Below, piece by piece: positions 15,709-56,589 of a stretch of DNA of 64,000 nt. A model generated the notes under the pieces. The model saw only the letters and a program-made list of their open reading frames with translations. It was not told where the DNA came from and did not search any database. Numbering within the stretch: position 1 is the first letter of the stretch; each line of letters opens with the position of its first letter. The DNA comes from an uncultured beta proteobacterium (lineage in GTDB: Bacteria; Pseudomonadota; Gammaproteobacteria; Burkholderiales; Nitrosomonadaceae): contig CAWKMH010000033.1 of the NCBI GenBank assembly GCA_963850515.1, positions 3,665 through 67,664 of the forward strand, read 5' to 3'. The position numbers and the translations under genes are program-made.

Positions 15709-16959
15709 TCAGTTATTCCGCAGTTTTATGCCCAGCAGTTTAAGTTTGCGGTAAAGATGCGTGCGCTCCAGCCCGGCTCGCTCGGCAACCCGGGTCATAT
15801 TGCCATTTTCCTGATCGATGAGTTGTTCAAAATACACTTTCTCGAACATATCGCGTGCTTCCCGTAACGGCATATTCAACGGGACACCAGCGACCGATTG
15901 TGCCGGCGATGACGATGCCAGTATTTGCTTCACATCATCTGCCGATATTTCATCGCCGGCACTGGTTAACGCAAGGGAATGCACTGCGCCGGTCAGTTGC
16001 GCAAGATTGCCGGGCCAGTCGTGGTTCCGTAAGCAGTTGAGCGCAGCGGTGCTGAATTGCCGCAAGGGCACTTCGCCTGATTCAATATAGCGCGAGAGTA
16101 TCTGGGCCGCGAGCTCGGGGATGTCTTCCCGATGTTCCCTCAGCGCGGGAACATTGATGCAAAGACCGCTCAATTGCTCATACAACCTCGGCTCATAGAC
16201 ACCTTGCGCGGCGAGCCCCGCCAATGGTGTTGTGGTAACGCATACGAGCCGGACACTATATTTTTCGAGTTTGCCCAACAGTAGAAGCAGTCCTTTTTGC
16301 GACAACCTGTTGAGGTCTCCTATCTCCTTGAGAAACAGCAATCCGCCTTTTGCCTGTTCAAGCAAATCCAACGGAGCATTCGCCAGAGCGGAGAGCGTAT
16401 CGGGCTCCACCCAGGGCGTGTTGGGACGATGCAAAAAGCGGGCGCATAGATCCACCCCAGTTCCGGGTTCACTGGTGAGCAGCAGCGGTGCGCGCAAGTT
16501 GACGACCTGTTCCAGCCGTTTTTTCAGATCTGCGATCAAAGGTCCCCTGCCTAAGCTGGCGAGGGGAAGCATTATGCTCGGTTTGACCTGCCCTCCGCGC
16601 AGCGCGCGCCCCACTGTGCTCAAAAGTTTTTGCAGCGGCACCGGTTTCTCGAGGTAGCCGGCTGCGCCCATGCGCGTGGCCTCTACCGCGGTGTCTATGG
16701 TCCCGTGCCCGGACATCATCACTACCGGCATGGTGAGCAGCCCGCCGCTGGCCCATTCTTTCAGCAGGGTGATCCCATCGGTATCCGGCATCCATATATC
16801 CAGCAGTACGAGGTCGGGCCGTGTTTGTTTGCGCCAGTTGCGCGCTTGACCTGCATTTTCCGCGAGGGCCACGCGATAACCTTCGTCCCGTAAAATTTCG
16901 GACAAGAGCTCGCGTATGCCGATTTCATCATCAACAACAAGTATGGTGTTATTGCTCAT
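15709..16959 (-). CDS. ntrX: NtrX-like response regulator (REC + degenerate AAA+ + Fis HTH)
   Basis: ILVVDDE, LLDIWMP, WPGN and ERTHLYRKL; lies downstream of ntrY. Confidence 0.88.
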   Translation of the reverse strand: MSNNTILVVDDEIGIRELLSEILRDEGYRVALAENAGQARNWRKQTRPDLVLLDIWMPDTDGITLLKEWASGGLLTMPVVMMSGHGTIDTAVEATRMGAAGYLEKPVPLQKLLSTVGRALRGGQVKPSIMLPLASLGRGPLIADLKKRLEQVVNLRAPLLLTSEPGTGVDLCARFLHRPNTPWVEPDTLSALANAPLDLLEQAKGGLLFLKEIGDLNRLSQKGLLLLLGKLEKYSVRLVCVTTTPLAGLAAQGVYEPRLYEQLSGLCINVPALREHREDIPELAAQILSRYIESGEVPLRQFSTAALNCLRNHDWPGNLAQLTGAVHSLALTSAGDEISADDVKQILASSSPAQSVAGVPLNMPLREARDMFEKVYFEQLIDQENGNMTRVAERAGLERTHLYRKLKLLGIKLRNN

Positions 16960-17064
16960 AATTCAGAAAATCAATAATACGTCGATTGTGGTGGAATTCA
17001 GAGCTGCCGATGTCCAGGTTACGAATTATCAATGGATACTCGTCGGCATGTTCGGTTCCTTTAT

Positions 17065-17195
17065 CCTAAATCCGGTAGTTGGACGGATTCACCCCGTAGC
17101 GCCCTCACCCGGAAGGTGAGCGTCAAATAATATGGAATATTGTTATTAATCATAACACTGATCTACTAAATGAGCGGTCAACTACCGGATTTAGG
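17065..17195. mobile_element. 131-bp MITE with IS1380-like termini and 5-bp target duplication
   Basis: Perfect 17-bp TIR CCTAAATCCGGTAGTTG / CAACTACCGGATTTAGG, flanked on both sides by TTTAT. Confidence 0.8.
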
Positions 17196-17210
17196 TTTAT
17201 GGCTGGTTAA

Positions 17211-19382: not shown

Positions 19383-20005
19383 GGCCTGCTGTTATCTTGA
19401 AGCTTTGGCATGGGCAGTTTCGTATTCCATCGCAGCAGGCCGGAGCTCAGATCCCACTCTCTCGACCCGAGCGTCTCTACCTGAAACGGTTTAGGCAAAG
19501 CCGATATGTCGAGCCGCATGCGCAATTCCACTGTATATTCCACATCGTGCCTTAATTCGGAACTGGCAATGATGGGTCGGTCGCGCACTCGACTCAAGGC
19601 CTGCAAGGCTTCCCTCAGCGTGCCGAAATTCTGCGATAACGTACCGCGACTCAAACGGTATTGACGAGTGAGCGCATAATAACTCAGCCCTTCACGAACC
19701 CTGCTCTGGGCAATTCGCTCGTCCAGCCAGTACCAGCGTGAATTCACCAGGTTAAGCTCCGTTACAAAATAAAGCACGATGCCTTTCTCGAGTGCATTTT
19801 CCAGCTTATGATTGAGCGTTATCTCGAAATCGGCGTCAAACTGATAACCTTCCTCAGTGGCTTCGAGCGTTACCGACGTTATCTGTATGCCACCGTCCGC
19901 ATGCGCTGCAGCCGCCGGCAGCAGCGCCGCAGTCAGCAGTGCCATTGCGGTCACGCACACGCACAGCAGCCGCGCAAATAGATCAGGCTTTGTGAAGCAG
20001 GGCAT
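19379..20005 (-). CDS. DUF4390 domain exported protein
   Basis: Signal peptide, RWYWLDE, LSYYALTRQYRL and LPKPFQV; sits in the conserved rsmB-DUF4390-ntrY order. Confidence 0.85.
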   Translation of the reverse strand: MPCFTKPDLFARLLCVCVTAMALLTAALLPAAAAHADGGIQITSVTLEATEEGYQFDADFEITLNHKLENALEKGIVLYFVTELNLVNSRWYWLDERIAQSRVREGLSYYALTRQYRLSRGTLSQNFGTLREALQALSRVRDRPIIASSELRHDVEYTVELRMRLDISALPKPFQVETLGSREWDLSSGLLRWNTKLPMPKLQDNSRP

Positions 20006-21266
20006 AAAAAAAACCGTCGTGATGGGAATCCGGCAATAATTGCCCGTCAATTGCTTCAACCCCCGAAATAGGTACCAGGCGGGCATCTGCGTGGTGGCGC
20101 AAGAAATTTTCTACCTGCAGTTCATTTTCCTCGGTAAATACCGAACAGGTGGCGTAGAGCAATTTACCACCCCTAGCCAGAATCTGCCAAAGGGCATCCA
20201 GAATTTCCCTCTGCTTCGCAACAAATTGAAAAAGATCGCTTTCACGCCTCAGCCATTTAATGTCCGGGTGACGTCGCGTCACGCCCGAAGCAGAGCAGGG
20301 AACGTCAGCCAGAATGCGGTCGAACAGCCTTTCGTCCCACCACTCCGCCGGCTGAGATGCGTTGCCATGAATGATATGATTGGCCTTGAGATCCAGTCGT
20401 GTAAAATTTTGTGTTATGCGCGCGACGCGCACGATGTCATTGTCGACCGCGGTCAATTCTATGTCCGCCAGCTCCAGCAAATGTGCGCTTTTGCCGCCGG
20501 GCGCTGCACAGGCATCCAAAACACGCATGCGATCGTGTACATCCAGTAACCGCGCCGCCAGTTGCGCGCCCGCGTCCTGAACCGATATCAAACCCTCGGC
20601 AAATCCGGGCAATCGGTCCACCGCCACCGGTTGCCTCAGCTCGAGCGCATCATTTCCTGCCGGACATGCGTCCATGCCACTTTGGCTGAGGAGATCTTGA
20701 TATTCCGCCATCATGATCCTTCGCCGATTGACTCTCAGAGTCATGGGGGGCCGTTTATTACTGTTCTCCAATACCGCCTCGTAGTTTTGAGGATATTGCG
20801 CGCGAAGTTTATCTATCCACCATTGCGGGTGGGAATACCGCCCTACCTCATTTTCAGCTACACGCTCGAGCAGAGCTGAGCGGTTACGTATGAAGTTGCG
20901 CAATACGGCATTGACAAGCCCTTGTACCCCCCGAGCACCCTTGCCACTGAGGGTGCGAGAAACTGACACAGCATTATCCACAACCGCATGCGGGGCGGTC
21001 TTGCTGTATTCCAGTTGATATAATCCCACCAGTAATAAACAACGCAGATTCTGGTCCTTCAGCGGCTTTTTCAGCAATAAGCCAAGCAATACGTCGAGTT
21101 GGCCATAAAAGCGCAGTACGCCATAGCTTAAATCCTGAATTGCTCCACGCTGTTGAGCAGAGAGATCGGCATGGTTACGCCAGACATCCTGCAGCATGGC
21201 TGTCAGGCTCGAGCCTGACAGTACCTTTGCCACAATTGCGGCAGCCAAACGCTGAGTTTTGGTCAT
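19983..21266 (-). CDS. rsmB: 16S rRNA m5C967 methyltransferase
   Basis: NusB-like N-terminus, VLDACAAPGGKS, DVPCSASG..RRHPDIKW and YATCS. Confidence 0.95.
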   Translation of the reverse strand: MTKTQRLAAAIVAKVLSGSSLTAMLQDVWRNHADLSAQQRGAIQDLSYGVLRFYGQLDVLLGLLLKKPLKDQNLRCLLLVGLYQLEYSKTAPHAVVDNAVSVSRTLSGKGARGVQGLVNAVLRNFIRNRSALLERVAENEVGRYSHPQWWIDKLRAQYPQNYEAVLENSNKRPPMTLRVNRRRIMMAEYQDLLSQSGMDACPAGNDALELRQPVAVDRLPGFAEGLISVQDAGAQLAARLLDVHDRMRVLDACAAPGGKSAHLLELADIELTAVDNDIVRVARITQNFTRLDLKANHIIHGNASQPAEWWDERLFDRILADVPCSASGVTRRHPDIKWLRRESDLFQFVAKQREILDALWQILARGGKLLYATCSVFTEENELQVENFLRHHADARLVPISGVEAIDGQLLPDSHHDGFFYALLHKA

Positions 21267-22198
21267 TCGCAGCTTTCAAAGCGATCGCCTGGCCGCAATG
21301 AATGACCCGAGAGAAATTCCGGGGACGCTCAGCTTTTTTCCACCCGATTTCTGCACGATTTCCAGTACGAGCGAACCCTTGCCACATCCCACCACAATGC
21401 CGTCGCGTCTTACTGCAACAATTTCACCTGGTTTGCCGGACACATCCGCGGCCACAGCGGCACGCCATATTTTCAAGGGCATTCCACACACCCGGGAATG
21501 TGCGCCAGGACGGGGATTGAATGCCCGCACTGTACGGCTGATATTTTCGGCGCTCAAGCACCAGTTAATTTCAGTTTCGTCTTTTTCCAGTTTGGGTGCG
21601 TAGGTGACGTCAGCTTCATTCTGAGGAATGGCAAAAAGTTTTTTCTGGTCCAGACAGCCCAGCGCCTCTACGATGCAGCGTGCCCCCAGCAGGGAGAGCC
21701 TGTCGTGCAGAGTCTGGGTGGTGTCATCCTGTTCGATTGCGATACCTCTCCGCAATAAAATGGCACCGGTATCCAGGCCCCGGTCCATTTGCATGATCGT
21801 GATTCCAGTTTCGCGATCGCCTGCCAATATTGCCCGCTGGATAGGCGCAGCACCTCGCCATCTCGGCAGTAACGAGGCGTGGATGTTCAGACAGCCAAAC
21901 CTTGGAATGCTCAACACAGAAAAGGGCAGGATCAGGCCATAAGCCGCAACAACCAGATATCGGCATCGATGGCTTCCAGTTGTGCTTGCAACTCGGGTTG
22001 CTTGAGCGAGTGTGGCTGCAACAAGGCAAGGTTTCGCTGCTGCGCCAGCGACTTGATTATGCCTGAGGTGGTTTTCATGCCGCGTCCCGCGGGACGATCA
22101 GGTTGGGTCAATACCAATGCAATTTCATGCCCGGCGTCTGCCAGGGCTTCAAGAGCAGGGGCGGCAAACGAGGGCGTGCCGGCAAAAATAATTCTCAT
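21263..22198 (-). CDS. fmt: Methionyl-tRNA formyltransferase (frameshifted)
   Basis: MRIIFAGTPSFA, TQPDRPAGRG and NIHASLLPRWRGAAPIQRA. Confidence 0.94.
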
Positions 22199-22805: not shown

Positions 22806-23321
22806 AAACGGGGCGAATCTTGAACGTTAACAGTCGAAATGCAAATTCAACCATATTGTTGCGATGTCGCATCACAACCTCTATAGGTAAGAGAAGGGTT
22901 TCCCGAATTCGATGCAGAGGTGCATTATATCCTGATTTGGGTAGGAAATTCGGTTTCCAGCGCTTGACCGCTTTCCGATGGCAATATGAGGAACATCGGC
23001 GATAATCTGTCTCCCTTTCAAAAGATGATCTGACGGGAGCGCTGCCATCTCAGCTCGGAAACCATGGTTTTTCAGCATGCAGAAATACGGTCAACTCGCT
23101 AATCGCGGACGAGAAACGGTACACTGATGCGATGCGTCAAAAATGACGGGGTTGTCGCCGTATCGGGTTGCTCGAGTGTATACGAATAACTATGCACGCC
23201 TCGTGCCTCGTGCTTCGCCTGACCTCAATTAGTCATTTTTAACGTTCCGCCATGGTTTATTATTTAAATCTGCTATACAACGCAACGGTATCTCTGTCTT
23301 ATCACGTTCAAAAATGATGAA

Positions 23322-24402
23322 ATGAAACCCATGCAGGAAATAGAGTCATGGCTCGCCCTTGGATTGGTTGATGGCCTCGGCGGCGAATCGATGCGGCGCT
23401 TGTTGAGAGCGTTCAGTACTCCTGCTGAAATCTTTTCCGCAAATATCACCGCGCTGGAGCGCGTGGTAAAAAGAAAGGTGGCGTATAACATTGTTCAGGG
23501 GGTAGACCAAAAAAGAATAGCTGCCACCCTCAAATGGCTGGAGGAGCCAGGCGAATTCGATTATTACACTGGCAGATCGCGATTATCCGTCGCTGCTACT
23601 GAACATACCGGATCCTCCCCCGCTTCTCTATTTCAAGGGAAGGCGTGAATTGCTGAATTCGCATACCTTGGCCATTGTGGGTAGCCGCAATGCGACGCCT
23701 CAAGGTCTTGCCAACGCCGAGGCTTTTGCCGAAGCGCAAGTAACGCCGGTCTGTGCATTGCAAGCGGCATGGCATCCGGAGTGGACGCTGCGGCACACCG
23801 TGGCGGGTTACGTGGTAGCGCCGCCAGCATTGCGGTAGTGGGAACCGGCCTGGATATCGTGTATCCAGCCCGTAATCGCGAACTCGCTCATGAATTGGCG
23901 GAAAAGGGCGCACTTATTTCCGAGTTTCCATTGGGCACGCCTGCCATTGGCAGCAATTTTCCGCGCCGCAATCGCATTATCAGCGGCATGAGTCGCGGCT
24001 GCCTCGTGGTGGAGGCCGCGTTGCGAAGTGGCTCGCTCATTACCGCGAGGCAGGCATTGGAGCAGGGTCGAGAGGTATTCGCCGTTCCCGGTTCGATTCA
24101 TTCGCCTCTATCGAAAGGTTGTCACGCACTCATCAAGGAAGGCGCGAAACTGGTCGAAAGCGCCGATGACATTCTGTGTGAGTTCGGTTTTGGCTCATAC
24201 AAAGTGCCATGCTTGATGCTGATGGACCGAAGGGCGAAGAATCGGTGCTACTGGCGCATCTCGGCCATGACATCACCAACATCGATACCTTGTGGTTCGG
24301 AGCGGCTTGACGGTAGAAATGGTATCAGCGATGCTATTGGCGTTTGAATTGGATGGCGTTGTTGCGAGTCTGCCGGGTGGGCGCTACCAGCGGCTTCGGT
24401 AG
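23322..24402 (+). CDS. dprA: DNA-processing protein DprA (frameshifted)
   Basis: AIVGSR, NFPRRNRIISG, VVEAALRSGSLITA and GREVFAVPGSIHSP. Confidence 0.92.
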
Positions 24403-27311: not shown

Positions 27312-27563
27312 TTAAGGCGCCGTAGCCTGGTGTTTTTCGATATAGGAAATAATATCTCCGACACTGCTGAATCCCTTTGCTTCCTCACTGTCGAAATTGA
27401 TCCCGAAAGCATCTTCAGCATCGAACAAAAGCTGAATCGTATCCATGGAGTCAAGCCCGAGCTCTTCAAATTTTGAAGACCTGTTTATCGTGGATGCATC
27501 CAGATTCTCAGCTTTTGTAGCGATAAACTGTATGACCTTCGTTTCGATATCTGCTGTGTCCAT
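27312..27563 (-). CDS. Acyl carrier protein (stand-alone paralogue)
   Basis: Acidic 83-aa protein with LGLDSMD phosphopantetheine site, EDAFGI and SVGDII. Confidence 0.9.
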   Translation of the reverse strand: MDTADIETKVIQFIATKAENLDASTINRSSKFEELGLDSMDTIQLLFDAEDAFGINFDSEEAKGFSSVGDIISYIEKHQATAP

Positions 27564-27580
27564 CTAATCTCTTCCTTCGT

Positions 27581-28798
27581 TCACGGGTTTGTGAAAATGA
27601 TGCTCGCATTGTTGCCCCCAAATCCGAAAGCATTGCATAGGCCGGTACGGGGGTTTTTTTGTTGTGCGCGGTTTGGCGTGTAATCGAGATCACACTCCGG
27701 ATCAGCCTCGTCAAGATTGATGGTCGGATGTATCGTGCCAGTGTGAAGCGCCATGATGGTGGCAATGCTGCCGATAGCCGCCGAAGCGCCAATCGAATGC
27801 CCAACCATTGACTTGGTTGCGCTAATGGCAATATCCCCGGCCCGGTTTCCAAAAACATGTTTAATAGCCCGGGTTTCCACGATATCTCCAAGCGGGGTGG
27901 ACGTTGCGTGCGCATTGATATGGTCGATGGAATCAGGTTTTAGGCCGGCGTCCTGGATAGCCGCTTGCATCGTCGATATCTGACCCTCGATGTCAGGCAT
28001 TACAATATGCTTGGCGTCGCATGCTTGCCCAAAACCAGCGAGTTGCGCGTATATTTTTGCCCCCCGGCGTATGGCCTGTTCTTCCCTCTCCAGAATGAGT
28101 ATCCCGGCACCCTCGGACATGACGAAACCTGCCCGGCTCCTGGCGAAAGGCCGTGATGCGCCCTCCGGGTCGTTATTGGAACTGGTAGTTAACGCATGCA
28201 ATATTTCAAAGCTCGTCATGGTCAACGGCAATACGCAGGCTTCCGCACCGCCGGCAACGACGGCGTCGGCTCTCCCGGCACGCAAGAGATCGAGTGCCAT
28301 GCCGATCGCATTGGCTCCGGATGAGCACGCTGTGCTGCAAGTCAGATTGACTCCTTTCAGCCCATGTTTGATTGCGACCCACGCAGCCGCGGAGTTTGCC
28401 ATCGTTCGAGGTACCGTGAAAGGAGGTACCGGCTGATTCTGGAACCTGCGCGTGGCAGAAGATTCAAACGTGCCGAACCCGCCCATTCCCGACCCTATGC
28501 TTACCGCCACTCGTTGTGGTGCATAGGTATCGAGTTTACCCGCATCTTCAAGAGCGAGATTGGCAGCAAGCAGCGCCAGTTGCGCAAATCTGTCCGTTTG
28601 ATCTATGTATTTGGCCGAGAGAAAGGTCGCGGGATCAAAACCGGCCACTTCCCCGGCTATTTGCGAACGCTGCTTGGACGCATCGAAGGCGCTGATTCTT
28701 TTAATCCCGCTCACGCCATTGACCGCTGCCGACCAAAACTGGTCAGTGCCTATGCCAATCGGAGAAACAATCCCCATTCCCGTAACGACTATACGCAT
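27581..28798 (-). CDS. fabF: Beta-ketoacyl-ACP synthase II (FabF-like)
   Basis: Cys-His-His triad TACSSG, INAHATST, KSMVGH; C-terminal NAFGFGGNN. Confidence 0.88.
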   Translation of the reverse strand: MRIVVTGMGIVSPIGIGTDQFWSAAVNGVSGIKRISAFDASKQRSQIAGEVAGFDPATFLSAKYIDQTDRFAQLALLAANLALEDAGKLDTYAPQRVAVSIGSGMGGFGTFESSATRRFQNQPVPPFTVPRTMANSAAAWVAIKHGLKGVNLTCSTACSSGANAIGMALDLLRAGRADAVVAGGAEACVLPLTMTSFEILHALTTSSNNDPEGASRPFARSRAGFVMSEGAGILILEREEQAIRRGAKIYAQLAGFGQACDAKHIVMPDIEGQISTMQAAIQDAGLKPDSIDHINAHATSTPLGDIVETRAIKHVFGNRAGDIAISATKSMVGHSIGASAAIGSIATIMALHTGTIHPTINLDEADPECDLDYTPNRAQQKNPRTGLCNAFGFGGNNASIIFTNP

Positions 28799-28942
28799 AC
28801 GTAACCAGAATGACTCATAAAGAAATTCAGGAACACCAGGCTTTTCCGAAAACCTGAGGCGGTAGGAAGACTTGCTTTGGCAGCGGTCAGCTTTTCCTGT
28901 CTGCTCGCCCCGGCATTCTTCAGTCCGAGCGTAAATCTGGCC

Positions 28943-29197
28943 TTACTGTGCATTAAACATCATGGGGAACAGGTATCTCAATATGCCTCCCATGATCCAG
29001 ATAAGAAGTATTAAACTTGAGATTACAGCCCCTCCTTCGATAAGTGCCGAAAGGAGTGTCCCTCCCAGGCTGTCGAATTCCTGCTGCCCATCTTCATTAC
29101 GCCGGCCCAGGCGGCGCTTTTTCACCCATACCTGCATTCCGATGACAACCGGAATAAGGGCGAGGGCAATTAGCAGATTATATTCAGGAGTGCCCAT
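28943..29197 (-). CDS. Small two-TM hypothetical membrane protein
   Basis: Two hydrophobic stretches around a basic loop (KKRR); GGAAGG RBS-like sequence upstream; co-oriented with fabF. Confidence 0.6.
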   Translation of the reverse strand: MGTPEYNLLIALALIPVVIGMQVWVKKRRLGRRNEDGQQEFDSLGGTLLSALIEGGAVISSLILLIWIMGGILRYLFPMMFNAQ

Positions 29198-29698: not shown

Positions 29699-30849
29699 AT
29701 GGATGATTCCTCCCAGCCAGCCTGCCTGGCGGTCATCGCCCGTCCGGTTAAGAGTCAAATGACATTGGCGTATTTATTGATGTTCCTTGGCGCATTTACA
29801 TCGATGACCCCATGTGGGTGCCGCCATTACGCCTGGAGCGACGGTTTCATTTTTCAAGATTCAACCCATTCTTCAAGCATGGTGAATGGCAGGCGTGGAT
29901 CGCATACCGGAATAACCAGCCCGTGGGAAGGATCAGTGCTCAAATTGATCAGCTTCATCGGCAGCGCTATGGCCCAGAAACGGGTCATTTCGGATTGTTC
30001 GAGTGTATAGATGATGTGGAAGTGGCCGCAGTATTGATGCGTGCTGCTGAGGAATGGTTGGCTGCGCGACATACCAGGCACGTAACCGGGCCATTCAATT
30101 TATCCATTAATCAGGAGTGCGGCGTCCTGGTGGATGGTTTCGATACACCCCCGATGGTCATGATGCCGCATTCGCGTCGGTGGTATGGCCGGTTACTCGA
30201 AGAACAGGGCTACCAGCCAGTAAAAGATCTGCTTGCCTACTGGGTGGAGGTGGACTTTAAAGTGCCCCGCTTGATGAGCGCCTTGATCGCAAAGTTTTCG
30301 GATCAGGTACGCTTGAGGCCACTACGCCGCGACAAATTTAGCGAGGAAATGGAAATACTGCGTGATATATTCAACGATGCCTGGTCGGAAAACTGGGGAT
30401 TCGTTCCTTTCACCAAGGCTGAGTTTGCCGAACTCGGTACCAGCCTTCGCTTGCTCGTACCCGATGATTGCATTCAGATTGCCGAGGTAGATGGCGTTCC
30501 ATCCGCATTCATGGTGGCATTGCCGAACCTTAACGAAATTTTCGCCGAGCTTGACGGAAGCCTGTTCCCGTTTGGCTGGGTCAAGCTGAGCAGGATAAAA
30601 TCCAGAGGGGCGGTACGCACGGGCCGGATACCTTTGATGGGGGTGCGCAAGCAGTTCCATAATACGCCGCTCGGCATGGCGCTGGCTTTTATGGTAATCG
30701 ACGCGCCCAAGAAGCTGGCGCGCGCAGTGGGCGTTCAGGCGGTTGAATTGTCATGGATACTCGAGGATAACAAACCCATGCGCGCGGTTCTGGATAGCTT
30801 GGGCTGCCGGGAGTATAAGCGTTATCGCATCTATGGAAAAACGTTGTGA
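29699..30849 (+). CDS. GNAT (YghO-like) acyltransferase; probable bacterial ceramide synthase bCerS (one frameshift near 5' end)
   Basis: PWRIY.DDP.WVPPL, GRISAQID, GHFG, GPFNLSINQECG, FNDAWSENWGFVP and ELSWILEDN; clustered with cpgABC-like genes. Confidence 0.78.
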
Positions 30850-30883
30850 TGAACGCACCCCAACGGCAAATCAGGGACTCAAG

Positions 30884-31723
30884 ATGAAAACGGATCAGTT
30901 TATCGCGCTGGTGCTGGCGGCGGATCGCGCTGCCAATGATCCCGTCGCGGGTAAAACCGGCGTGGCCTGCAAGGCAATCGCACCCATTTGCGGCACGCCA
31001 ATGATCATCCGCGTATTGGATGCGCTGGAAGCCAGCGATATGGTGAAAACAATCGTCATACTGGGTCCGCCGGCATCTATTCTCCCCGACTGCCCTGAGC
31101 TGGAGGACCGGATTAAATGCGGGCGCGTTATCTGGCTGCCGAATCTTGATTCCCCCAGTCGAAGCGCGAACAGCGGTCTCGAACAGATTGATCAGGATGC
31201 GCCGGTCTTGCTGACGACAGCGGATCACGCATTACTGACGCCTTCTATCGTGCAGTATTTTTTAAGCAAATCGCTAACGGCACACAGCGATGCAACGGTA
31301 GGCGTGGTCAAGCATGAAGATGTCGCGGCCGCATTTCCCGGCGTAAAACGAACCGTAATACGACTGCAGGATGGCGGGGTCTGTGGTTGCAACCTTTATG
31401 CGTTTCTCAATCATCGGGGAAGGGGCCTGGTTTCGTTCTGGCAGCGTGCGGAAGAGTTGCGCAAACGCCCGTGGCTACTCATCTCCCGCACTTTTGGGTT
31501 CATGACGGTCCTTTCCTATTTGCTGGGGATATTGACAGTTGATAAGGGATTGAAAGCGGTTTTAGCAAAAACCGGCATCAAAGTGCGGCCGGTGTTTTTG
31601 CCGTACCCGCAGGCTGGCGTTGATGTCGATAAGGTTGAAGATATGCTGCTTGTGGAATCCGTTCTGGCGGGAGCGGCACCGCTTGCTCAAGAGCAGGCAG
31701 ATTCGCATGACCTTATCCCCTAG
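30884..31723 (+). CDS. MobA-like NTP transferase of the type found beside bCerS
   Basis: ALVLAADR, KAIAPI, LLTTADHALL, GCNLY, RKRPW and DVDKVED. Confidence 0.75.
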   Translation: MKTDQFIALVLAADRAANDPVAGKTGVACKAIAPICGTPMIIRVLDALEASDMVKTIVILGPPASILPDCPELEDRIKCGRVIWLPNLDSPSRSANSGLEQIDQDAPVLLTTADHALLTPSIVQYFLSKSLTAHSDATVGVVKHEDVAAAFPGVKRTVIRLQDGGVCGCNLYAFLNHRGRGLVSFWQRAEELRKRPWLLISRTFGFMTVLSYLLGILTVDKGLKAVLAKTGIKVRPVFLPYPQAGVDVDKVEDMLLVESVLAGAAPLAQEQADSHDLIP

Positions 31724-31762
31724 CCTTAAAGGCTGTCTCATTACATAGCGGCAAAGAAATCC

Positions 31763-32847
31763 GTGAAGATAATCGATCGATACATCACGCGGGAATTGTT
31801 GATGCCGTTTACGGTAATAGCCGTGATCCTGTCGACATTGTTTTCGAGTTTCAGCAGTGCCAATTTTCTGGCCGGGGCAATGTCGGAGTCGCTCGGCGTT
31901 GGCGCCATGCTGAAGGTCGTGCTGCTTAAGACGGTGATCGCATTGGAAGTGCTGATGCCGATTTCCTTGTATGTCGCGGTAGTCATGGGGCTTGGGCGTT
32001 TATATAGAGACCAGGAAATCAGCGTCTTACGTTCCGCCGGTGTCAGCGAAAATCGCATAATCTTTGCTGTTCTTATCGTTGCCATTCCTGTGGGAATTGC
32101 CAGCGGACTTTTTTCCGTATTCGTGCGTCCATGGGCATATGAAGAAAGTTACATGATGAGTGCCCAGGCAGAGGCGGAATTGAACATGGATCGATTCCAG
32201 GCTGGGCGTTTTTACGGGAGCGAGGGCAAAGCAAGAATGGCAGAGTGGTTTACATTCAGTCCAAGGATAGCGCCGGTAAGCAAATGAAAGATGTATTCCA
32301 CTACATGAATAAAGATGGAATCAGCGAGATTATAGTGGCCAAGGAGGCCTATCAGCAGGAGCCCATAGCGGGCCAACGGCCCCAGATACATTTGCTGGAC
32401 GGTTCCATTTACCGGCTCATGCATTCAGGAACGAAGGATACTGTCGTCCACTTCGAAAAATTGGTCTATTTTACCGATAGCGGAAATAACTGAATTACAG
32501 ACGAAAGGCGACGCCACGGCGACGTTGATGGAATCCGATCAGCCGCGTGATATTGCCGAATTCCAATGGCGGATTTCGCGTCCTATGGCTACGATTCTCC
32601 TGGCCCTTATCGCGGTGCCATTCAGCCGTACTTCCCCTCGTCAGGGAAAAAGTGAAAGGTCTTTTTATGGCGCAGCCGCCGTTTTCGCGATCTACTATAT
32701 CCTGAGTGGATTAGCCCAGACATGGGTCGAGCAGGGTACTATCAGCAGAGTACCCGGTGTCTGGTGGCTTTATATATTGATGGCCTGCTGTTTGCGTTCA
32801 GCCTGCTATCCACCGGGTTCCGGCAGAAGTTATTTCTGCGCAGATGA
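31763..32847 (+). CDS. lptF: LptF/YjgP-family permease (frameshifted)
   Basis: IIDRYITRE, GRLYRDQEISVLRSAGVS and AEFQWRISRP. Confidence 0.85.
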
Positions 32848-33911
32848 CGATAATCAATCGCTATCTGGCGTTCCAGATCGTCATGGGTCTGGGAATCGCT
32901 ACGGTGATACTCCTGCCGCTATTTGGTTTTCTTGACTTGCTGGATCAGCTTGGATGATGTCGGCAAGGGCACCTATCAGGTCAAGGACGCCTTCCTGAAT
33001 ACGGCCTTACTGTTGCCGCGCAGATTTATCCAGCTTGCGCCTTTCATCGTGTTGCTGGGTAATGTTGTCGCATTGGGTCGGCTGGCGGTCGGGTCAGAGT
33101 TGACAGCGTTGCGCGTGGCAGGTCTATCCCCAACCGGTATCAGCCTTGCTCCAGTTGCGGTTGGGTTGGTCTCTTTTATTGGTTACTATGGTACTGGATC
33201 AATTTGTCGCTCCCCAATTGCAGCAGAAGGCTATTTCGTCGCGGGCCGTTGCGCTTGAGAAGAGCGCCGCGCTTGGCAAGCAACTGGGTATCTGGACCCG
33301 GGACAAACGAAATATATTGCGTATCGGTGAAATGCTGCATGCGGGGAAAGCAGCAGATGTCGAGCTAATGCATTTTGACGACAATGGCTTTCTGCTAACC
33401 TATACCTACGCTAAATATGCAGTTTTCATCGATGGTGATCTGTGGGAATTTAACGACGTCACCACCAAAACTTTTACCGGAAACCAGATAAAATCCGCAA
33501 GCACAGAATTCGATGCAGTGGAAACCATTTCTGAATCCGGATGATATTTCGACGCTGACGAAGCCCCCGGAGAGTCTCTCGCCGATCGAGTTGTTTCTGC
33601 ATGTCCGTTTTTTACGCGCCACCGGTCAGGAGGCTGATGCTTATGCACTTGCCTTATGGCGGAAGGTCGGCGGCGCATTGACGACAATTGCAATGTTATT
33701 GCTTTCGATACCGTTTGTTTTCGGATCGGTACGGGCGGGCCTTGCCAACAGGCTTGTCGTTGCGTCCATGCTCGGTATCAGCGTCTACCTGTTCGATCAG
33801 ATTATTGCCAATGCGGGTTTGCTGCTGCACCTGAACCCGGCGCTAACCGCGCTATTGCCCGGGTTGGTGCTGATCGCTCTTGCGAGTTTCTGGTTGCGGC
33901 GAATTTTTTAA
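32844..33911 (+). CDS. lptG: LptG/YjgQ-family permease (frameshifted)
   Basis: MTIINRYL, LDDVGKGTY, GRLAVGSELTALRVAGLS and PFVFGSVR; ATGA overlap with lptF. Confidence 0.85.
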
Positions 33912-34141
33912 CCAAAATCTGGCAGTTGGACGGGGTGAAGTGAGCGGTTTTTGGGGTGCAGAGCAAGGCGGACGACGCGGAATGGTCATCACATTCAAAA
34001 AGTTGCAACGCAGCGCTGTGCCGCAAAAAACTGTTCAATCGCCCCGTAGCGAGCTCAAAAAGGTGATGCCCACGCGTATGAAAAATACTTTTCCGTTATA
34101 GCACCTAACCGACAAATAAGCGGTCAACTGCCGGATTTAGG
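33912..34141. mobile_element. 230-bp MITE of the same family as 17065-17195, with a long internal hairpin
   Basis: CCAAAATCTGGCAGTTGGACGG ... GCGGTCAACTGCCGGATTTAGG; flanks TTTAA / TTTAG; shares the internal CCCCGTAGCG motif. Confidence 0.72.
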
Positions 34142-34581
34142 TTTAGGGGTTTCTTGCTTATTTTCCGTCATTAGGTTAAAAGACCGCATCCATTTCTGAT
34201 CATCGCCGTGTTACCGATGCCGCAATCTGCGCAATTTCCCCAGCCAAACAAATATGAAAGATTTTAAGCAAGTCCCTCCTGGGCGCGAGGATGTCTCAGC
34301 GGCATCGTGAGAATAATGTCATCTTCAGGCAAGAGACGTAAATAGTGTCAGCCTGCCTCGCCTGGAGCCTGATCGAGCGTATCCCATTGCGCTAGTCTTC
34401 CTTCGGGTTTCGCTATCGGGCGTTCATTGCGTTTCACGTCTGGGCTTCTCAGGCCGATCCGCCGCCTTCATGTACGCTTTACGGTCTTTCCAGTTTTGGC
34501 CTGCTCGGTTGCGACTAAGCGCTCCGCAGAGGCTGTTCAAAATTTATAAAACAAGACCACAATCAGACAAATACCCGAAAT

Positions 34582-35815
34582 ATGTCAAAGCCAGTTTACA
34601 TCTATATCGTCGGCGATAGTGAGACGAATATCTGGGGCTTGAGCGGCCGCGAGCGCTTGCAGCGCATGTTAAAGCCCTCTTCGCAGACCCGGTTGGTCGA
34701 TGACCCCGAGCAGATTCCGGTGCATGCATCGGCATTGTTGCTTCGCGCGGATCATCTATTCGATGCCAGGGTATTGGCGGCGTTGATTAACGCAAAAACA
34801 AACCTTGTGCTCGGCAGCAACCAGGGTCAATCCGTCGCGATCCGGGTTATAGATGGTGATGTGCATCAGGTACTGGCGAATTTCGTGGAGGGTGGAGATG
34901 AGCGAACTTTTTCCGATTTTCCTCTTTATGCGCTGAAGGATCTCGATTTATCAAGCCTCCGGCAAAACCTCAAGAAAAGAGATCCTCCTTACGTTTTGCC
35001 GATCAACAATGATAACCGGCAAATGCTCGAATCCGAACTGTTTACAGAGATCTTACAAGGGGGTGACCGATCTCGTGACAAAATGGCTCTGGCCGGTTCC
35101 CGCATTCTGGACGGTACGCTTTTGCGTACGCTTCGGCATACGGCCCAATCACATTACACTGCTCAGTCTTGTGTTTGCCGTACTGGCCGGGGTTGCGTTC
35201 TGGCATAGCTACTATGGACTGGGTCTGGTGATGGGATGGCTGATGACCTTTCTGGACACCGTCGACGGAAAATTGGCGCGAGTCACTGTCACCTCAAGCC
35301 GCTTGGGGGATGTGCTCGATCACGGCCTGGATATCATTCATCCGCCGCTCTGGTATATTGCCTGGGGTGTGGGGTTGACCACAGCGATTAACGCCGCCAT
35401 TCACATCTGGCGGTATTGTTCTGGTTGATACTTATCGGTTATATTGGCGGCCGCTTGTGTGAAGGAGCATTCCAATTCTGGGTCGCGATCGTTTGATATC
35501 TTCATCTGGCGACCACTGGATTCTTTTAGTCGGCTCATCACTGCCCGGCGTAATCCCAACCTCATCCTGCTGACGTTCGGCTGGTTCATGGACAGGCCTG
35601 ATATTGGTCTCTGGTCGGTGGTTGCCTGGCATCTGGTCTCGACGGCATTTCTTGCTGTCCGGTTAGTGATGGGCTGGCAAGCACGGCGGTTTCAGGGTCC
35701 GTTACGATCATGGTTTGAGGAAATCGTGCCAGGGCGGGATGACGGAAAACTCGCTGTTCGTATTTTTGCCCCTTTAACGGTTAAGGTAAATGATAGAAAA
35801 GTCACGCATGGATAG
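34582..35815 (+). CDS. CDP-alcohol phosphotransferase with N-terminal extension (CpgA-like; frameshifted)
   Basis: YKGVTDLVTKWLWP, IRPNHIT, DTVDGKLAR..., LDHGLDIIHPPLWY and ITARRNPN. Confidence 0.8.
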
Positions 35816-36806
35816 ATTGAAGTCTGGAGCACCCGCGGTCGGGTTGCTTTTCAATCCTCTTAGCGGACGTATTCGCAAGCGCAAAGATGCAATAAGGCAA
35901 GCGCTTGCGGCGATTCCAGGCGCGGTCTGCAGGGAAGTGACCAACGCACCGGAGATTAATGCATCAGTGGATGCCTTTATGGATGCCGGTATCGATTTGC
36001 TGGTAATTGTTGGCGGAGACGGTACGGTGCAGGGCGTGTTATGCCACTTATTTGCCACGCAACCTCTTGCGAAGTGGCCCGCGTTAACGGTTGTGCCGGG
36101 GGGAACAACCAACATGACCGCTCTGGATCTTGGCATTTGCGGCAGCCCGGAGTCCATTCTTCAGCAGTTGAGGAACTATCTGCTGAAGCAGACACCTCCA
36201 TTGCTGTTGGAGCGCCATGTACTGTGCATTGAACAAAGCGGCGCGGCGAAGGTTTATGGAATGTTCTTCGGCGTCGGGACTTATTGCCCGGGCAGTAATA
36301 TTCTCCCAGAGCAAGATAAAACAATTAGGTATTACTGGCGAAATTTATTCAGCTATCATCACCGTTGGATACGTTAGCGGCTTGATTTTAGGGCGGCGGC
36401 AGCGGAGCATGGGCGCCGGTTCAGATGTCGATTATTGACAAGGATATTGAGTTGTACCGCGGAACCTTCGCGTTTCTCTTCGCAAGTACCCTCGATCGAT
36501 TGCTGTTCGGCATGCGTCCGTACTGGGGACAGGAGCAGGAACCGTTGCATGTCACGTTTGTCCGGCAGCAGCCAAAGCGCCCCTTACGCTCATTGTTTCA
36601 ATTACTTTCGGGTCGCGGAGACCTCCTCAAGGAAAAAAACGGCTATCACAGCTCCAATACCAAGGTGTTGGAGCTGCGGATGGATGACGTTTATATCGTC
36701 GATGGCGAATCCTACCGTGCGACGAGTCAAGATGGACCGTTGCGTATTACGCGCGGCGGGTCCGATCAGCTTTTTGGTGGCGGATAGCGCAAACGCAGAC
36801 TCATGA
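35808..36806 (+). CDS. Diacylglycerol/sphingosine kinase-family lipid kinase (CpgB-like ceramide kinase; frameshifted)
   Basis: FNPLSG, VGGDGT, PGGTTN, GMFFG and DGE motifs; coupled to the cpgA-like gene. Confidence 0.8.
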
Positions 36807-36807
36807 T

Positions 36808-37786
36808 ATGACAAGCAACACCTCAGTACCCGATCGGCAGCTCCCGGACGATTTGATCTCGGAGATGGCCTCGCTGAGTTCAAAAGTTGTATCAGCGGAT
36901 TTTCTTATTCTCGTTGACGCGTTGAAATCCCGGTTCGGGTCATCGCTGCGAAGCGGTGCTTCTTTATGGATCTTGCCTGCGCTCTCACGAGATCGGTGAC
37001 GGGGTGGTGGATTTCTACGCTGTAGTGAACAGCTACAGCGAAGCTTATCCAGAGCATTATCTAGCTGTTCTCAACGCATGGCTGCCGCCAAACGTATTTT
37101 TTCTCGAGGTATCCGCGCAGGAAAAGAAGTTCCGCGCCAAGTATGCGGTGGTTTCGATGGCGGATTTCGAGCAGGGCACCCAACACTGGTTTCACCCCTA
37201 TCTATGGGCGCGCTTTCGCTCAGCCCTCCCGGTTGCTGTATGCGCGTGACGAAACTGGTTCGCACGCGGGTCAACCAGGCGCTGGCCCATGCGGTGCGTA
37301 ACATTTCTCGAATCCAGCCTTCCCTTATTGCCGGGGCCATCCGCAGTGAGTGCCGAGACAATCTGGACCAACGGATTGACCCAGACCTATGCGGCGGAAT
37401 TGCGGCCTGAGCGGTCGACGCGCGCCCGCCAGCTCGTCGAGCTCAATCTGGATGACTACGCACGCTTGACCCGATGCGCCGTACCGGCATTAGCAGGAAA
37501 CGCTGAGGTATTGCCGGATGGGAATTATCGATGTTTAACGGGTGTGGCAGAACGGCGCCACTCGTTATGGCGTTGGCGATTACGCCGCTGGCAGGGAAAA
37601 ATCCTGTCTGTGCTGCGGCTTTCAAAGGCGGCGTTTACTTTCCATGACAGCATCAATTATGCCGCCTGGAAAATCGAGCGTCATACCGGGGTCCGTGTCG
37701 AGGTAACCCCCTTGTTGCGGCGCCATCCGCTGCTTTGGGGCCTGAAGGTTTCGTGGAGATTGTTGCGGCGAGGCGTAATGCGCTAG
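36808..37786 (+). CDS. Conserved protein, nucleotidyltransferase-like (CpgC-like; frameshifted)
   Basis: LLYGSCLR, VDFYAVV, WLPPNVF, AKYAV, YLWARF, TYAAELRPE and YAAWKIERHTG; directly follows the kinase. Confidence 0.72.
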
Positions 37787-37838: not shown

Positions 37839-39038
37839 TCATGAGTATGCCTCTGCTTCAGCAGACGTGTATGGTATCGTTTCGCTTGATTGGAGAATCA
37901 GATCGCAAACTTCGCGGACCGCACCATGGCCGCCGGAGTGCTTACAAACGTAGTGAACTTGCCGCAGAATTTCCGGAACGGCATCCGCTGGGCAAAACGC
38001 ACTACCCACCCGACTCAAACACTTCAGATCGCTGAGGTCGTCGCCGACGTAGCCAATATTTTGCAGGGAAATTCCCCAGCGTTGTGCCAACTCCAGCAGA
38101 AGCGGGAGTTTATTCTGTACACCTGGATAATATTCATCAATGCGCAGTTTCTTCATTCTGGCTGCGACGGCAGGGCTGTCCTCGGTGCTGATAACGCACA
38201 CGCTGATGCCATTTTCCCGCAACAATTGCAAGCCATGGGCATCGCGCGTATTGAATTTCTTCAGTGCTTCACCGGCGGGTCCATAATACATTCCGGCGTC
38301 GGTCAGTGTACCGTCTACATCGAGCACCAACACTTTAACCTGTGAGGCGCGAGCTTTCGCCGATATCAGTTTTTGTTTCAACAAAAGCTGCTCTACAGCC
38401 GTCCAGCCCGCTTCATCGATCACTTCGATTGCGGTCTCGGCAGCCATTTCATGGATGCCGATGTGGCCACCTAAACGGCAGCCGTGATCTCTGAGCGATT
38501 TCGCTCCGGTTAGATAGAAAGCACCATTTTCCACCAGATACCCTTCAATATCTTTGGGCACAGGGCGTTTCCGGGGGTCATGGTCAACCGGCGCACCTGC
38601 CGGGGTCCAAAAGAAGCGTTTGGACTGCACGGCAGTTAGAAGGGAATCCAGGTTTTCAGAAAGAAACTTATGCTTGGCGGCACGAAAGTCTTCCGCCCGC
38701 GTGAGGGGCGAAGCGGCCCGAACCAGACATACGACATCAAAAAGAATCTTCTGTTGAAACTCAAGCAGCGCGCTGTCCATGCTGCCGTCATCCTTCACGG
38801 CGGAGTAATCCAGAACCTTTATCGTCTTATCAGACGCCGGAAATTCATCGGATATTTTCTTGCGAATCTCCACCGATGAGTCAGTAATGACATAAATGGT
38901 GTCGAAACACCCGGATGCGATGGCCTGCTCCAGGACCCAGGCGAATAACGGCCGTCCCGCAATATGGCGCGTAGCATTTCGGAGAATCGGAATCGATTCG
39001 AAATTTCCATGCAGAGGTATGAGAGCTACCCAACGCAT
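37839..39038 (-). CDS. Fused CMP-sialic-acid-synthetase-like domain (degenerate) + KdsC-like C0 HAD phosphatase
   Basis: NeuA-fold N-terminus (ENGAFY). HAD motifs DVDGTLTD, FNTRD, GDDLSD, PADA and GGHGAVRE. Confidence 0.88.
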   Translation of the reverse strand: MRWVALIPLHGNFESIPILRNATRHIAGRPLFAWVLEQAIASGCFDTIYVITDSSVEIRKKISDEFPASDKTIKVLDYSAVKDDGSMDSALLEFQQKILFDVVCLVRAASPLTRAEDFRAAKHKFLSENLDSLLTAVQSKRFFWTPAGAPVDHDPRKRPVPKDIEGYLVENGAFYLTGAKSLRDHGCRLGGHIGIHEMAAETAIEVIDEAGWTAVEQLLLKQKLISAKARASQVKVLVLDVDGTLTDAGMYYGPAGEALKKFNTRDAHGLQLLRENGISVCVISTEDSPAVAARMKKLRIDEYYPGVQNKLPLLLELAQRWGISLQNIGYVGDDLSDLKCLSRVGSAFCPADAVPEILRQVHYVCKHSGGHGAVREVCDLILQSSETIPYTSAEAEAYS

Positions 39039-39916
39039 CAGTTGAAGTGAACTCCCTGCACGCGTTTGAGCTTGTCGCGCTGCGAAAGCTCGATCTCTGT
39101 CATTTCATTTTCCTTGACCCGTAATGTCTTGCAGACGTTGCGAACATCCCGAACCAGCCTGCGCAGCCCGTCCGGTTCCAGCGACGCGGCATGGTCGGTT
39201 CCCTTCCAGGTCCGGTCCAATGTGAAATGCCGTTCAATCCAGGATGCGCCTAAAACCACGGTTGCAATATCAACGGCAATGCCAAGATGGTGACCGGAGA
39301 ATCCGATTTCCTTGACGCGGGAGCCAAACTTATCATTGAGGATCTGTATTTCCAGCAGGCAGACCTGATCAAAAGGAACGGGATATCCGGACGTGCATGC
39401 GTACAGAACAACTCGGTCGGCGGCGCCGCACTTCTCCATCAATTGCACGATCTGCTCTTGTTCAGCAGGGGTCGTCATGCCGACGGATATGTGAATGTCA
39501 CCGCCATAATGGTCAGCAAGATACCGCAGCATGGGAAAATTGAGATTACATGCCGAGGGTATCTTGATGAATTCCGGGTTAAGGCTGGCAATTTCTTTTG
39601 CTGAGGTAAGATCCCAGACCGACGTCGAGTAGCCGATCCCGACCTCCTGGCACCATTGCTGTAATTGCCGATGCTGATCCATGTCGAATTCGAGAAATTC
39701 ACGGTGCGCGCCATAGCTTTCCCCATAACTGTTTTGGGGGTTCGGATGGCGTGCACCATATTCTTCAGGGGTAAGTAATTCCCTGTTCGAACGCTTTTGA
39801 AATTTTACGAAATCGCATTTCGCAAATGTTGCCGCGATCCCTATCATTTCGCGGGCGATCTCCATGTCCCCCTTATGATTACAGCCTATTTCAGCAATGA
39901 TTTTTGGTGTCTTCAT
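39038..39916 (-). CDS. neuB: Nonulosonate(-9-phosphate) synthase, NeuB family, without C-terminal SAF domain
   Basis: IAEIGCNHKG, KFQKR, KIPSA, GFSGHH and ERHFTLDRTWKGTDHAASLEP. Confidence 0.88.
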   Translation of the reverse strand: MKTPKIIAEIGCNHKGDMEIAREMIGIAATFAKCDFVKFQKRSNRELLTPEEYGARHPNPQNSYGESYGAHREFLEFDMDQHRQLQQWCQEVGIGYSTSVWDLTSAKEIASLNPEFIKIPSACNLNFPMLRYLADHYGGDIHISVGMTTPAEQEQIVQLMEKCGAADRVVLYACTSGYPVPFDQVCLLEIQILNDKFGSRVKEIGFSGHHLGIAVDIATVVLGASWIERHFTLDRTWKGTDHAASLEPDGLRRLVRDVRNVCKTLRVKENEMTEIELSQRDKLKRVQGVHFN

Positions 39917-40056
39917 AAATGATTTAAGATTATCCTTTGATTACAAATGAAATGAATATAAAACCCGAGCCCATCTTTGGCGAGTGCCGCCACTATATCA
40001 GACGGATCCGGAAAGCTTTTTTGGAAAGAGATTGTGAGGTTTAATTCGAAGATTTG

Positions 40057-41458
40057 CTAACCCTGGATTCTGAACAGGTGTCTTGAATGTTGTTTGACTC
40101 TGATATTGCCGAAACGATTCAATAAGTGACCAAAACGCGCGATCTTCTGCTCGATCTCCGCAACCGGGATCTCGGGGAAGCGATGGTCATGGTACGAAAG
40201 CCGGTTGGGGCCAGGACGGCGCATGTTCAAGTTTGTGACCGAAGCCTTTAACTTGGCGAGCGCCCAGCCCTGAACAAACGTTCCGACCGGGGGTGAGGGC
40301 GGCTGCTTTCTACCATAGCCATTTTCCTCAAGGATATCGACGATGCGCTCGCAAGCCAAACGCCCATTTTGAGCCGCCAGGTAATAATCGATGAGTGCCT
40401 TGCGTTCCTCACCTCCCGCGACGCCCAGTTTGCCTTCAAGAATTCCGGTCAAGGTATGCTGCAATTCTTCAAAATTGAAGGACTGATAGCTTAGCTTGGT
40501 GGGCAGGCCCTGAAACTCATAGTCATAATACTCGTTGAATGTCGCAAGGTAAGATATAGCAGGCACCCCAAGCGCATAAGCCTCCAGTCCCGTCGTGCAA
40601 CCATTGTGCACCATTGTCTTCGCAGCCAGAAGCCAGGGGATGACATTGCCCTCATTGATGACTTTCACTCGCCGGCACTTGGCGGCGATCTCATTGTATA
40701 CCTTGAAATTTTCGCTCGGATGTGGCCGGACGACAATCGTCAGATCAGGAAAAGCCCGTTCGAGAGCGGGAATGAGTTGCTTGAAATCCTCCAGTATTGC
40801 CTGCTTATGATCCCATAATCCATCGGCAAATTCGCGGCTCATCCCAATCCCGGCTTGGCCGCGCCGGGACTTCTTCTGCCCATCTTTCGATGGCACAAAC
40901 AAACCAACATTCGGAATGAAGGGGTTTACCTCGGTAAAGTTCGTGTTGATGAGAATGAAATTACCGTAAAGTTTACGCAATTTCTCTACTTCTGTATCAA
41001 AATAGGGTCGCATTTCGGGCCGCAATATATCCCCGCGAGGATTTCCGGTAATATGGATAGGCATATTTGCAGGCAGTTGCGGATACTGCTGAAGCAAGTC
41101 GACATTTTCCTGACCCCAGGCAAATATGTGGGACACATTCCTGATTGTCGTCGGCGACAGTCGAACGGTGAAATAGGTGTCGGGGGGCGGGTGAACCAGC
41201 GCCTCTTCTTCCCATGCGACGATCTCATGTCCAGAGCAAACGCAGGATTCTGAACATCGAATTGCTCAGGCTGCGCATGCTTTTTGCCAGATACACCCCC
41301 CGTGGAAGCGACGCTACCTCGAAATGGACAAACGCGCGCGAACCGAGAATAACCGGAAAACCGCGCTCCGCCGCTACGCAGGACAGCAGGAGTTTCGCGT
41401 CCAATTCACGCACCTGATTTTCAACGGGAATAATGAGGGTCGAAGCGGGATTTGACAT
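40057..41458 (-). CDS. Surface carbohydrate biosynthesis protein (GT-B-like; one frameshift)
   Basis: PVENQVRELDAKLLL, WEEEALV, FAWG, TGNPR, ILINTNF, VRPHPSE and HNGCTTGLEA. Confidence 0.75.
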
Positions 41459-54020: not shown

Positions 54021-54080
54021 AGAATATCCGGTAGCAGATACAGAATATCCGGTAGCAGATTAGAATATCCGGTAGCAGAT
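54021..54080. repeat. Three tandem copies of the 19-bp unit AGAATATCCGGTAGCAGAT
   Basis: Exact copies at 54021, 54042 and 54062. Confidence 0.92.
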
Positions 54081-56558: not shown

Positions 56559-56589
56559 GTTTTTCCCAGGCGCCAACGGTCGTGCCTGG

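Follow-up and report, generated by a model that had tools for sequence, protein, structure and literature searches.

The seven co-oriented genes at positions 29699-37786 of a 64,000-nucleotide stretch of Nitrosomonadaceae DNA (the window; contig C33 of a 2.25 Mb assembly of 105 contigs, 67.65% complete) most probably form the Nitrosospira version of the Caulobacter locus for the anionic sphingolipids ceramide-phosphoglycerate (CPG) and CPG2. In this reading, to which we would give a probability of about three in four, the LptF/LptG pair in the middle of the cluster acts as the sphingolipid permease, and the broken reading frames seen in the draft sequence are assembly errors. An initial annotation, made from the sequence alone, had recognised here a Caulobacter-type gene set in an apparent ammonia oxidiser. 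Pfam and NCBIfam models recover the seven families that it named, all on the + strand, and the organism is a Nitrosospira. Its families and coordinates thus stand, but the broken frames in six of the seven genes had been left unmentioned.

The order of the seven genes is kept in 18 of 18 genomes of the same genus that were searched and also in a Nitrosomonas genome (G197). Because of this conservation, the arrangement is no chance juxtaposition. The nearest relative used for comparison is Nitrosospira sp. Nsp11 (G015, named from its GNAT protein), which is 96% identical over the whole stretch. Intact Nitrosospira proteins were compared with the correspondingly placed genes of four named Caulobacter loci. 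The named Caulobacter and Phenylobacterium loci were found by an alignment scan for CpgA homologues in one genome per GTDB species, and the Caulobacter loci used share the same neighbours, aasR-cerR-acpR-spt, cpgC-B-A and cerS-NTP transferase.

The first gene of the cluster (29699-30849, + strand) encodes a bCerS-like GNAT protein, a homologue of bacterial ceramide synthase with a weak match to Pfam Acetyltransf_1, which is 45% identical over its full length to the product of the cerS-position gene (E 1e-97 to 1e-102 in the four loci). At E<=1e-30 its family comprises 1221 clusters, among which one bears the name 'associated with serine palmitoyltransferase'; the distant homologues reached by this cluster look-up are mostly unnamed metagenome proteins, with none from Caulobacter. 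The MobA-like nucleoside triphosphate (NTP) transferase that follows (30743-31723, + strand, likely start near 30893; Pfam NTP_transf_3, E 2e-12) is 31-36% identical to the NTP_transf_3 protein encoded next to cerS in the Caulobacter loci (E 1e-28 to 1e-39). Downstream of the LptF/LptG pair, the CpgA-like CDP-alcohol phosphotransferase (34582-35815, + strand; Pfam CDP-OH_P_transf) is 39% identical to the product of the cpgA-position gene (E 1e-70 to 1e-75), and its motif D217/D220-G-x2-A-R...G234-x3-D238-x3-D242 (D..DG..AR..G...D...D) is invariant in a 10-sequence alignment.

The CpgB-like DAGK-family lipid kinase (35790-36806, + strand; Pfam DAGK_cat, E 1.6e-16), a candidate ceramide kinase, is 29-30% identical to its counterparts in the Caulobacter loci. 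A forward search into the complete genome of Caulobacter sp. UC70_42 gave E 6.7e-26, the next best match being at 0.0018, and the reverse search found the cluster gene as the only match in Nsp11, G009 and G197 (E 1e-20 to 1e-26 (2e-25)). By these searches, the kinase is the reciprocal best hit of the cpgB-position gene of Caulobacter sp. UC70_42. The last gene (36808-37786, + strand) encodes a CpgC-like protein without an assigned family, carrying the LYGS and LPPNV motifs and 32-37% identical to the product of the cpgC-position gene (E 1e-30). Its match to Pfam Tam41_Mmp37 is sub-threshold; its AlphaFold model (pLDDT 86.7) predicts a Tam41-like nucleotidyltransferase fold, the best PDB folds being the Tam41 CDP-DAG synthases 6ig4, 6ig2 and 7ecd (E 7e-9). 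This is in agreement with the CDP-DAG-synthase domain already reported in CC_1161 (Olea-Ozuna et al., PMC11324152), and the link between CpgC and Tam41 is therefore not new.

Reciprocal best hits had been proposed as a check of orthology to CpgA-D. This check holds for CpgB in both directions. The MobA-like gene is of the CC_1153 (CCNA_01211) type and is not the CpgD counterpart. In PDB, where a solved relative of CpgD or CC_1153 was looked for, its top and sole match is the hypothetical protein TTHA0179. CpgA, CpgB and CpgC thus have their homologues in the cluster, and the CpgD-like gene lies at 56702-57472 on the - strand, 19 kb from the cluster and beyond the coordinates first considered. 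Its open reading frame (ORF) is intact and encodes an NTP transferase (Pfam NTP_transferase), a candidate CTP:phosphoglycerate cytidylyltransferase, which is 43% identical over 223 aa to the product of the cpgD-position gene of Caulobacter sp. UC70_42 (E 6e-60). These figures are close to those published for Neut_0268 of Nitrosomonas eutropha against CC_1152 (44%, 5e-62; PMC11324152). In one high-GC Caulobacter locus (L110, 2899-3771), the antisense frame of cpgD is open and gives spurious antisense-to-antisense matches to the CpgD-like gene of the window, a trap for six-frame searches. Homology and synteny with the four named loci support the view that the cluster genes, with their bCerS, CC_1153-type, CpgA, CpgB and CpgC proteins, are syntenic homologues of the Caulobacter sphingolipid locus, as initially proposed.

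The genes predicted to build ceramide lie elsewhere. A second alpha-oxoamine synthase besides BioF is encoded in all four complete Nitrosospira genomes searched (Nsp11, G009, G011 and G018), each of which carries aasR-cerR-acpR-spt as one operon, encoding in Nsp11 an AMP-ligase, an epimerase-family reductase, an acyl carrier protein (ACP) and Spt. The best match of the Nsp11 Spt is to solved Sphingomonas serine palmitoyltransferases (E 6e-123), far above KBL or BioF, and the intact Nitrosospira proteins are 54% (Spt), 40% (AcpR), 33-36% (CerR) and 42% (AasR) identical to those of the Caulobacter loci. In the assembly that holds the window, a search with the bioF model recovers no BioF and no Spt. 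The Pfam Aminotran_1_2 matches were also considered as Spt and rejected, the best of them being aspartate/alanine aminotransferases and a frameshifted hisC. The DNA downstream of the spt operon aligns to contig C71 of this assembly; because this contig ends 143 bp short of the expected end of spt, the gene is probably just unassembled, and its absence from the genome does not follow.

On the - strand at 27312-29197, divergently from the bCerS-like gene, lie genes for a FabF-type KAS II, an ACP and a small unknown protein. With 497 bits the KAS II narrowly exceeds the fabF cut-off, and the ACP falls below the acpP cut-offs. These genes may provide a dedicated acyl supply for the lipid.

The LptF (31763-32847, + strand; pieces matching Pfam LptF_LptG and TIGR04407) and LptG (32853-33911, + strand; Pfam LptF_LptG and TIGR04408) genes had been taken for an extra pair, as in Caulobacter. 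This does not hold. They are the only matches in their own genome, exactly two LptF/LptG matches, those of the cluster pair, are found in 21 of 22 near-complete Nitrosospira genomes, and the pair belongs to the canonical clade, outside LptF2/G2. The Nitrosospira proteins match the canonical pairs found in the order's other families at E 1e-27 to 1e-54, and the locus-borne LptF2/G2 more weakly, at E 1e-5 to 1e-24. In quick tree searches on 24 and 30 sequences, with support given by the Shimodaira-Hasegawa-like approximate likelihood ratio test (SH-aLRT), the locus-borne LptF2 and LptG2 of Caulobacter, a Phenylobacterium-like genome, Azospirillum, Hydrocarboniphaga and Variovorax (the latter from the same order as Nitrosospira) fall into two supported clades, one for each protein (99 for LptF2 and 97 for LptG2). 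Nitrosomonadaceae LptF groups with the canonical LptF of the same order (SH-aLRT 98-99), and LptG with the canonical LptG of the order, apart from LptG2 (SH-aLRT 99), each on a long stem of about 1 change per site. The BLAST comparison and the two trees rule out that the cluster pair is an orthologue of LptF2/G2; judged from these comparisons, it is the organism's only, vertically inherited, canonical-type Lpt permease.

What such a permease would carry is brought into question by the lipid A genes. LpxC is found in none of 40 Nitrosomonadaceae genomes from four genera, all >=95% complete, and in 37 of 39 genomes from other families of the order. Among 24 Nitrosomonadaceae genomes, none has an LpxB over the cut-off and a single one has the N-domain of WaaA (G215, C72:4308-4838). 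LpxK is found in two Nitrosomonas genomes (e.g., G197, C1:1543192-1544142) and not in Nitrosospira; remnants of the lipid A pathway thus survive unevenly in Nitrosomonas. LptD is present in all five genomes tested, including that of the window. The loss of lipid A genes is not new: it was published in 2010, with N. europaea keeping only lpxK and N. multiformis only lpxA (Opiyo et al., 2010, PMC3087551), in agreement with the present counts. Because LpxC, LpxB and WaaA are missing while LptD is kept, the sole Lpt permease probably exports the anionic sphingolipid and not lipopolysaccharide (LPS). We found no paper in the searchable literature that joins the lipid A loss, the sphingolipid genes and the position of the sole LptFG.

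The Caulobacter locus has been described before (Zik 2022; Dhakephalkar 2023, 2025; Uchendu 2026 preprint). There, CpgB is a proven ceramide kinase and CpgD a proven CTP:phosphoglycerate cytidylyltransferase that makes CDP-glycerate; CPG requires cpgB and cpgC, and CPG2 requires cpgA, cpgD and CC_1153 (PMC12275187). LptF2/G2 are required when CPG2 is made, and bind LptB. Gene content, homology, synteny, copy number, tree position, the absence of lipid A genes and the retention of LptD are observed in Nitrosospira, and the enzymatic steps proposed here are borrowed from Caulobacter genetics and biochemistry. By analogy, Nitrosospira would make the same lipid or a similar one. Four proteins encoded elsewhere, Spt, AcpR, AasR and CerR, would form ceramide with the help of the bCerS-like GNAT of the cluster, and the CpgB-like DAGK-family kinase would convert it to ceramide-1-phosphate. 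The Tam41-like CpgC homologue could then activate ceramide-1-phosphate or convert it towards CPG, possibly via a CDP-ceramide-like intermediate. The CpgA-like CDP-alcohol transferase, aided by the CC_1153-like enzyme, would add a second phosphoglycerate, for which the CpgD-like nucleotidyltransferase (56702-57472) would supply CDP-glycerate. Finally, the sole LptF/LptG pair would move the anionic sphingolipid out of the inner membrane towards the outer membrane.

As they stand in the assembly, most of these genes are broken. Only the NTP-transferase gene, the sole indel-free one among the seven, has an open frame, and the other six are each spread over two to four frames. In Nsp11 all seven ORFs are intact (383, 326, 362, 394, 409, 337 and 364 aa), and alignment with this genome reveals about 19 frame-disrupting indels in the six genes, of one to four bases, nearly all single-base insertions and none in a homopolymer. 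The bCerS-like gene has one frameshift near 29755 and is open from an ATG at 29812 (345 aa vs 383 aa in Nsp11). LptF lies in three frames, with indels at 32236, 32489, 32513 and 32787. One-base insertions are found in LptG at 32954, 33172 and 33506, in the CpgA-like gene at 35047, 35387, 35405 and 35486 and in the CpgB-like gene at 36279, 36401 and 36751; the CpgC-like gene contains four of them and one three-base insertion.

The indels are not confined to the cluster. Over the alignable 39 kb, 19 of 29 Nsp11 ORFs have at least one, scattered with clean patches between. Dense patches of one-base indels, each within a single gene, are seen at 1756-2516 (23), 2637-3985 (15), 9562-11024 (10) and 23279-24384 (6), and alternate with indel-free stretches (15713-21271, 27584-28805 and 37842-39668). 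This alternating pattern suggests an uneven consensus quality of the assembly. On another contig of the same genome (C8, 4421-8955), three housekeeping genes, serC, pheA and hisC, are likewise broken into two or three frames apiece. With indels masked, dN/dS against Nsp11 is 0.07-0.17 for all seven genes (0.16 for the GNAT and 0.10 for the NTP-transferase gene), and substitution divergence is 1.5-4% in the cluster vs 5-8% in the intact flanks. As essential genes are broken at random and the cluster is under purifying selection, the frame breaks in the six genes are, from these comparisons, most likely draft-assembly errors and not biology.

It could nevertheless be argued that the cluster is truly decaying, the frameshifts being true mutations in a strain devoid of the lipid or of a working LptFG. 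The concentration of about 19 indels in six of seven genes, with none in the flanking genes at 27581-28798 and 37839-39916, and the many pseudogenes reported in ammonia-oxidiser genomes (Opiyo et al., PMC3087551) would fit such a decay. We consider it very improbable, as the loss of the genus's only LptF/LptG pair should be lethal or severely harmful, similar indels break hisC, pheA, serC and topA-like genes elsewhere, dN/dS reveals no relaxation, divergence is lower in the cluster than in its intact flanks, and random one-base insertions fit read error. LptFG could also be an ordinary envelope transporter that lies by chance among lipid genes, the sphingolipid leaving the inner membrane by another way. 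In favour of this are the ancestry of the pair, which lies in canonical LptF/LptG rather than in the sphingolipid-specific LptF2/G2, and the example of Myxococcus, which is thought to use another exporter. It is unlikely, although less so than decay, since in a family without a lipid A pathway the canonical substrate is missing and LptD and LptFG are nevertheless retained. In addition, the pair occupies the LptF2/G2 slot of Caulobacter-type loci in a position conserved across Nitrosospira and Nitrosomonas, and its long stems are consistent with a change of substrate.

The product itself might also differ from CPG and CPG2: the ceramide could bear a different phospho-head group (phosphoglycerol or phosphoinositol, for example), or the product could be a modified non-sphingoid lipid. 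For the CDP-alcohol transferase, the curated models that come nearest are indeed inositol-phosphate lipid synthases, with every score far below cut-off; the proteins share only 29-45% identity with the Caulobacter enzymes, counterparts of CC_1158 and LptC2 are missing from N. eutropha (PMC11324152), and the window is rich in nonulosonate/ulosonate genes that could decorate a lipid. Such a product appears improbable, a little more so than a chance position of LptFG, given that cpgA, cpgB, cpgC, cpgD, CC_1153 and cerS, all genetically required for CPG2 in Caulobacter, have syntenic homologues here, and that the CpgD-like enzyme is as near to that of Caulobacter as the N. eutropha one. Several points do weigh against a CPG-type locus with LptFG as its permease. 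This 67.65%-complete assembly yielded no spt, acpR, cerR or aasR, CpgB has a low identity to its Caulobacter counterparts (29-32%), and the LptFG trees come from quick searches with only 24-30 sequences. The biochemical roles of CpgA, CpgC and CC_1153 are putative even in Caulobacter, the Nitrosospira head group is putative and taken from Caulobacter, and no lipid analysis of an ammonia oxidiser with ceramides was found in the searchable literature.

The prediction of ceramide-phosphoglycerate itself is not new, as it has been published for N. eutropha C91, which is predicted to form CPG and CPG2 (Olea-Ozuna et al., 2024, PMC11324152, Fig 7, table S2D). In that work, Neut_1100 is cerS (CC_1154), Neut_1101 is CC_1153, Neut_1102/1103 are given as lptF2/lptG2 orthologues and Neut_1104/1105/1106 are cpgA/cpgB/cpgC; Neut_0458-0461 are aasR-cerR-acpR-spt and Neut_0268 is CC_1152 (cpgD). 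The seven-gene order of Neut_1100-1106 (cerS, CC_1153 homologue, lptF, lptG, cpgA, cpgB, cpgC) is identical to that of the window, in the same ammonia-oxidiser family, and the spt operon and cpgD are likewise at separate loci. The present locus differs in belonging to Nitrosospira, whose proteins are about 59-63% identical to those of a Nitrosomonas genome, and in having a cpgD-like gene only 19 kb from the cluster. Moreover, the pair that was called LptF2/G2 orthologues is here a sole LptFG of canonical type.

Compared with the locus of Caulobacter crescentus (CCNA_01210-01226), homologues of bCerS, CC_1153, CpgA, CpgB, CpgC and CpgD are all present, and an LptF/G pair lies between the cerS and cpgABC blocks. 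The Caulobacter locus is one contiguous array of 17 genes including spt, whereas the Nitrosospira genes are spread over at least three places. Caulobacter has LptF2/G2/C2 on top of its LPS machinery and lipid A, whereas Nitrosospira is without a second LptFG, LpxC, LpxB and WaaA, and also without counterparts of LptC2, CC_1158 and CC_1166, as reported for N. eutropha (PMC11324152). A parallel is provided by Sphingomonas wittichii and other LPS-less sphingolipid producers, which have no lipid A genes and keep Lpt machinery. In S. wittichii, a single LptFG beside sphingolipid genes has been proposed as a dedicated sphingolipid exporter, but it is described as an LptF2/G2 homologue, whereas in the Nitrosomonadaceae the pair falls in the clade of canonical proteins from the same order. 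The Nitrosomonadaceae LptFG would thus represent an independent route to the same end.

CpgA homologues are not restricted to nitrifiers. In a 400-genome sample of the phylum, they occur in the two other Nitrosomonadaceae genomes, in none of the other genomes of the same order and in 8 of the remaining ones, and with one genome per GTDB species, CpgA relatives occur in at least 593 species, including Variovorax and Piscinibacter of the Burkholderiales. On this distribution, the locus is both patchy and mobile, and nitrifiers are not its only carriers. AmoA (PF02461) was unmatched in the assembly that holds the window and likewise in control genomes; as amo is multi-copy and often unassembled, this is no sign of its absence.

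Within the cluster, the spacer of 670 bp between LptG and the CDP-alcohol transferase gene contains a multi-copy, strandless repeat of about 240 bp (33907-34145), which resembles a miniature inverted-repeat transposable element. About 15-20 whole or partial copies are present in this genome and dozens across the genus, often as two halves of about 80 bp and about 150 bp. Around the cluster, at 37839-41136 and 53059-58414, an envelope island encodes NeuB, a CMP-synthetase/HAD fusion, a histidine-phosphatase-family (phosphoglycerate-mutase-like) protein, an ATP-grasp sugar-transfer protein and a HAD hydrolase whose gene adjoins the CpgD-like one.

The gene set by itself adds one genus, Nitrosospira, to the published list, and its context matters more. 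Most interesting is how three features come together: the family is LPS-less, it carries a full anionic sphingolipid pathway, and a canonical LptFG is embedded in that pathway. In all Nitrosospira and Nitrosomonas genomes examined, the only LptFG lies inside the sphingolipid cluster. The frameshifts also carry a caution, as an annotation pipeline taking them as recorded would annotate an essential transporter and an entire pathway as pseudogenes. Together, the lipid A loss (2010), the sphingolipid pathway (one species, 2024) and the position of LptFG give a testable answer to what forms the outer leaflet of nitrifiers, and offer a natural system for studying how a canonical LPS permease can change its substrate. 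Sensitivity to polymyxins, detergents and phages is determined by envelope lipids, which could also be used as lipid biomarkers of nitrifiers. One possibility, to which we give slightly less than even odds, is that the Nitrosomonadaceae as a family have abandoned lipid A for an outer leaflet of CPG-type sphingolipid, with their ancestral sole LptFG re-tooled in the LptF2/G2 slot in place of the LptF2/G2 paralogues that accompany the locus in other proteobacteria. If true, globally important nitrifiers would have reached an LPS-free, sphingolipid-based outer membrane by a second, independent route.

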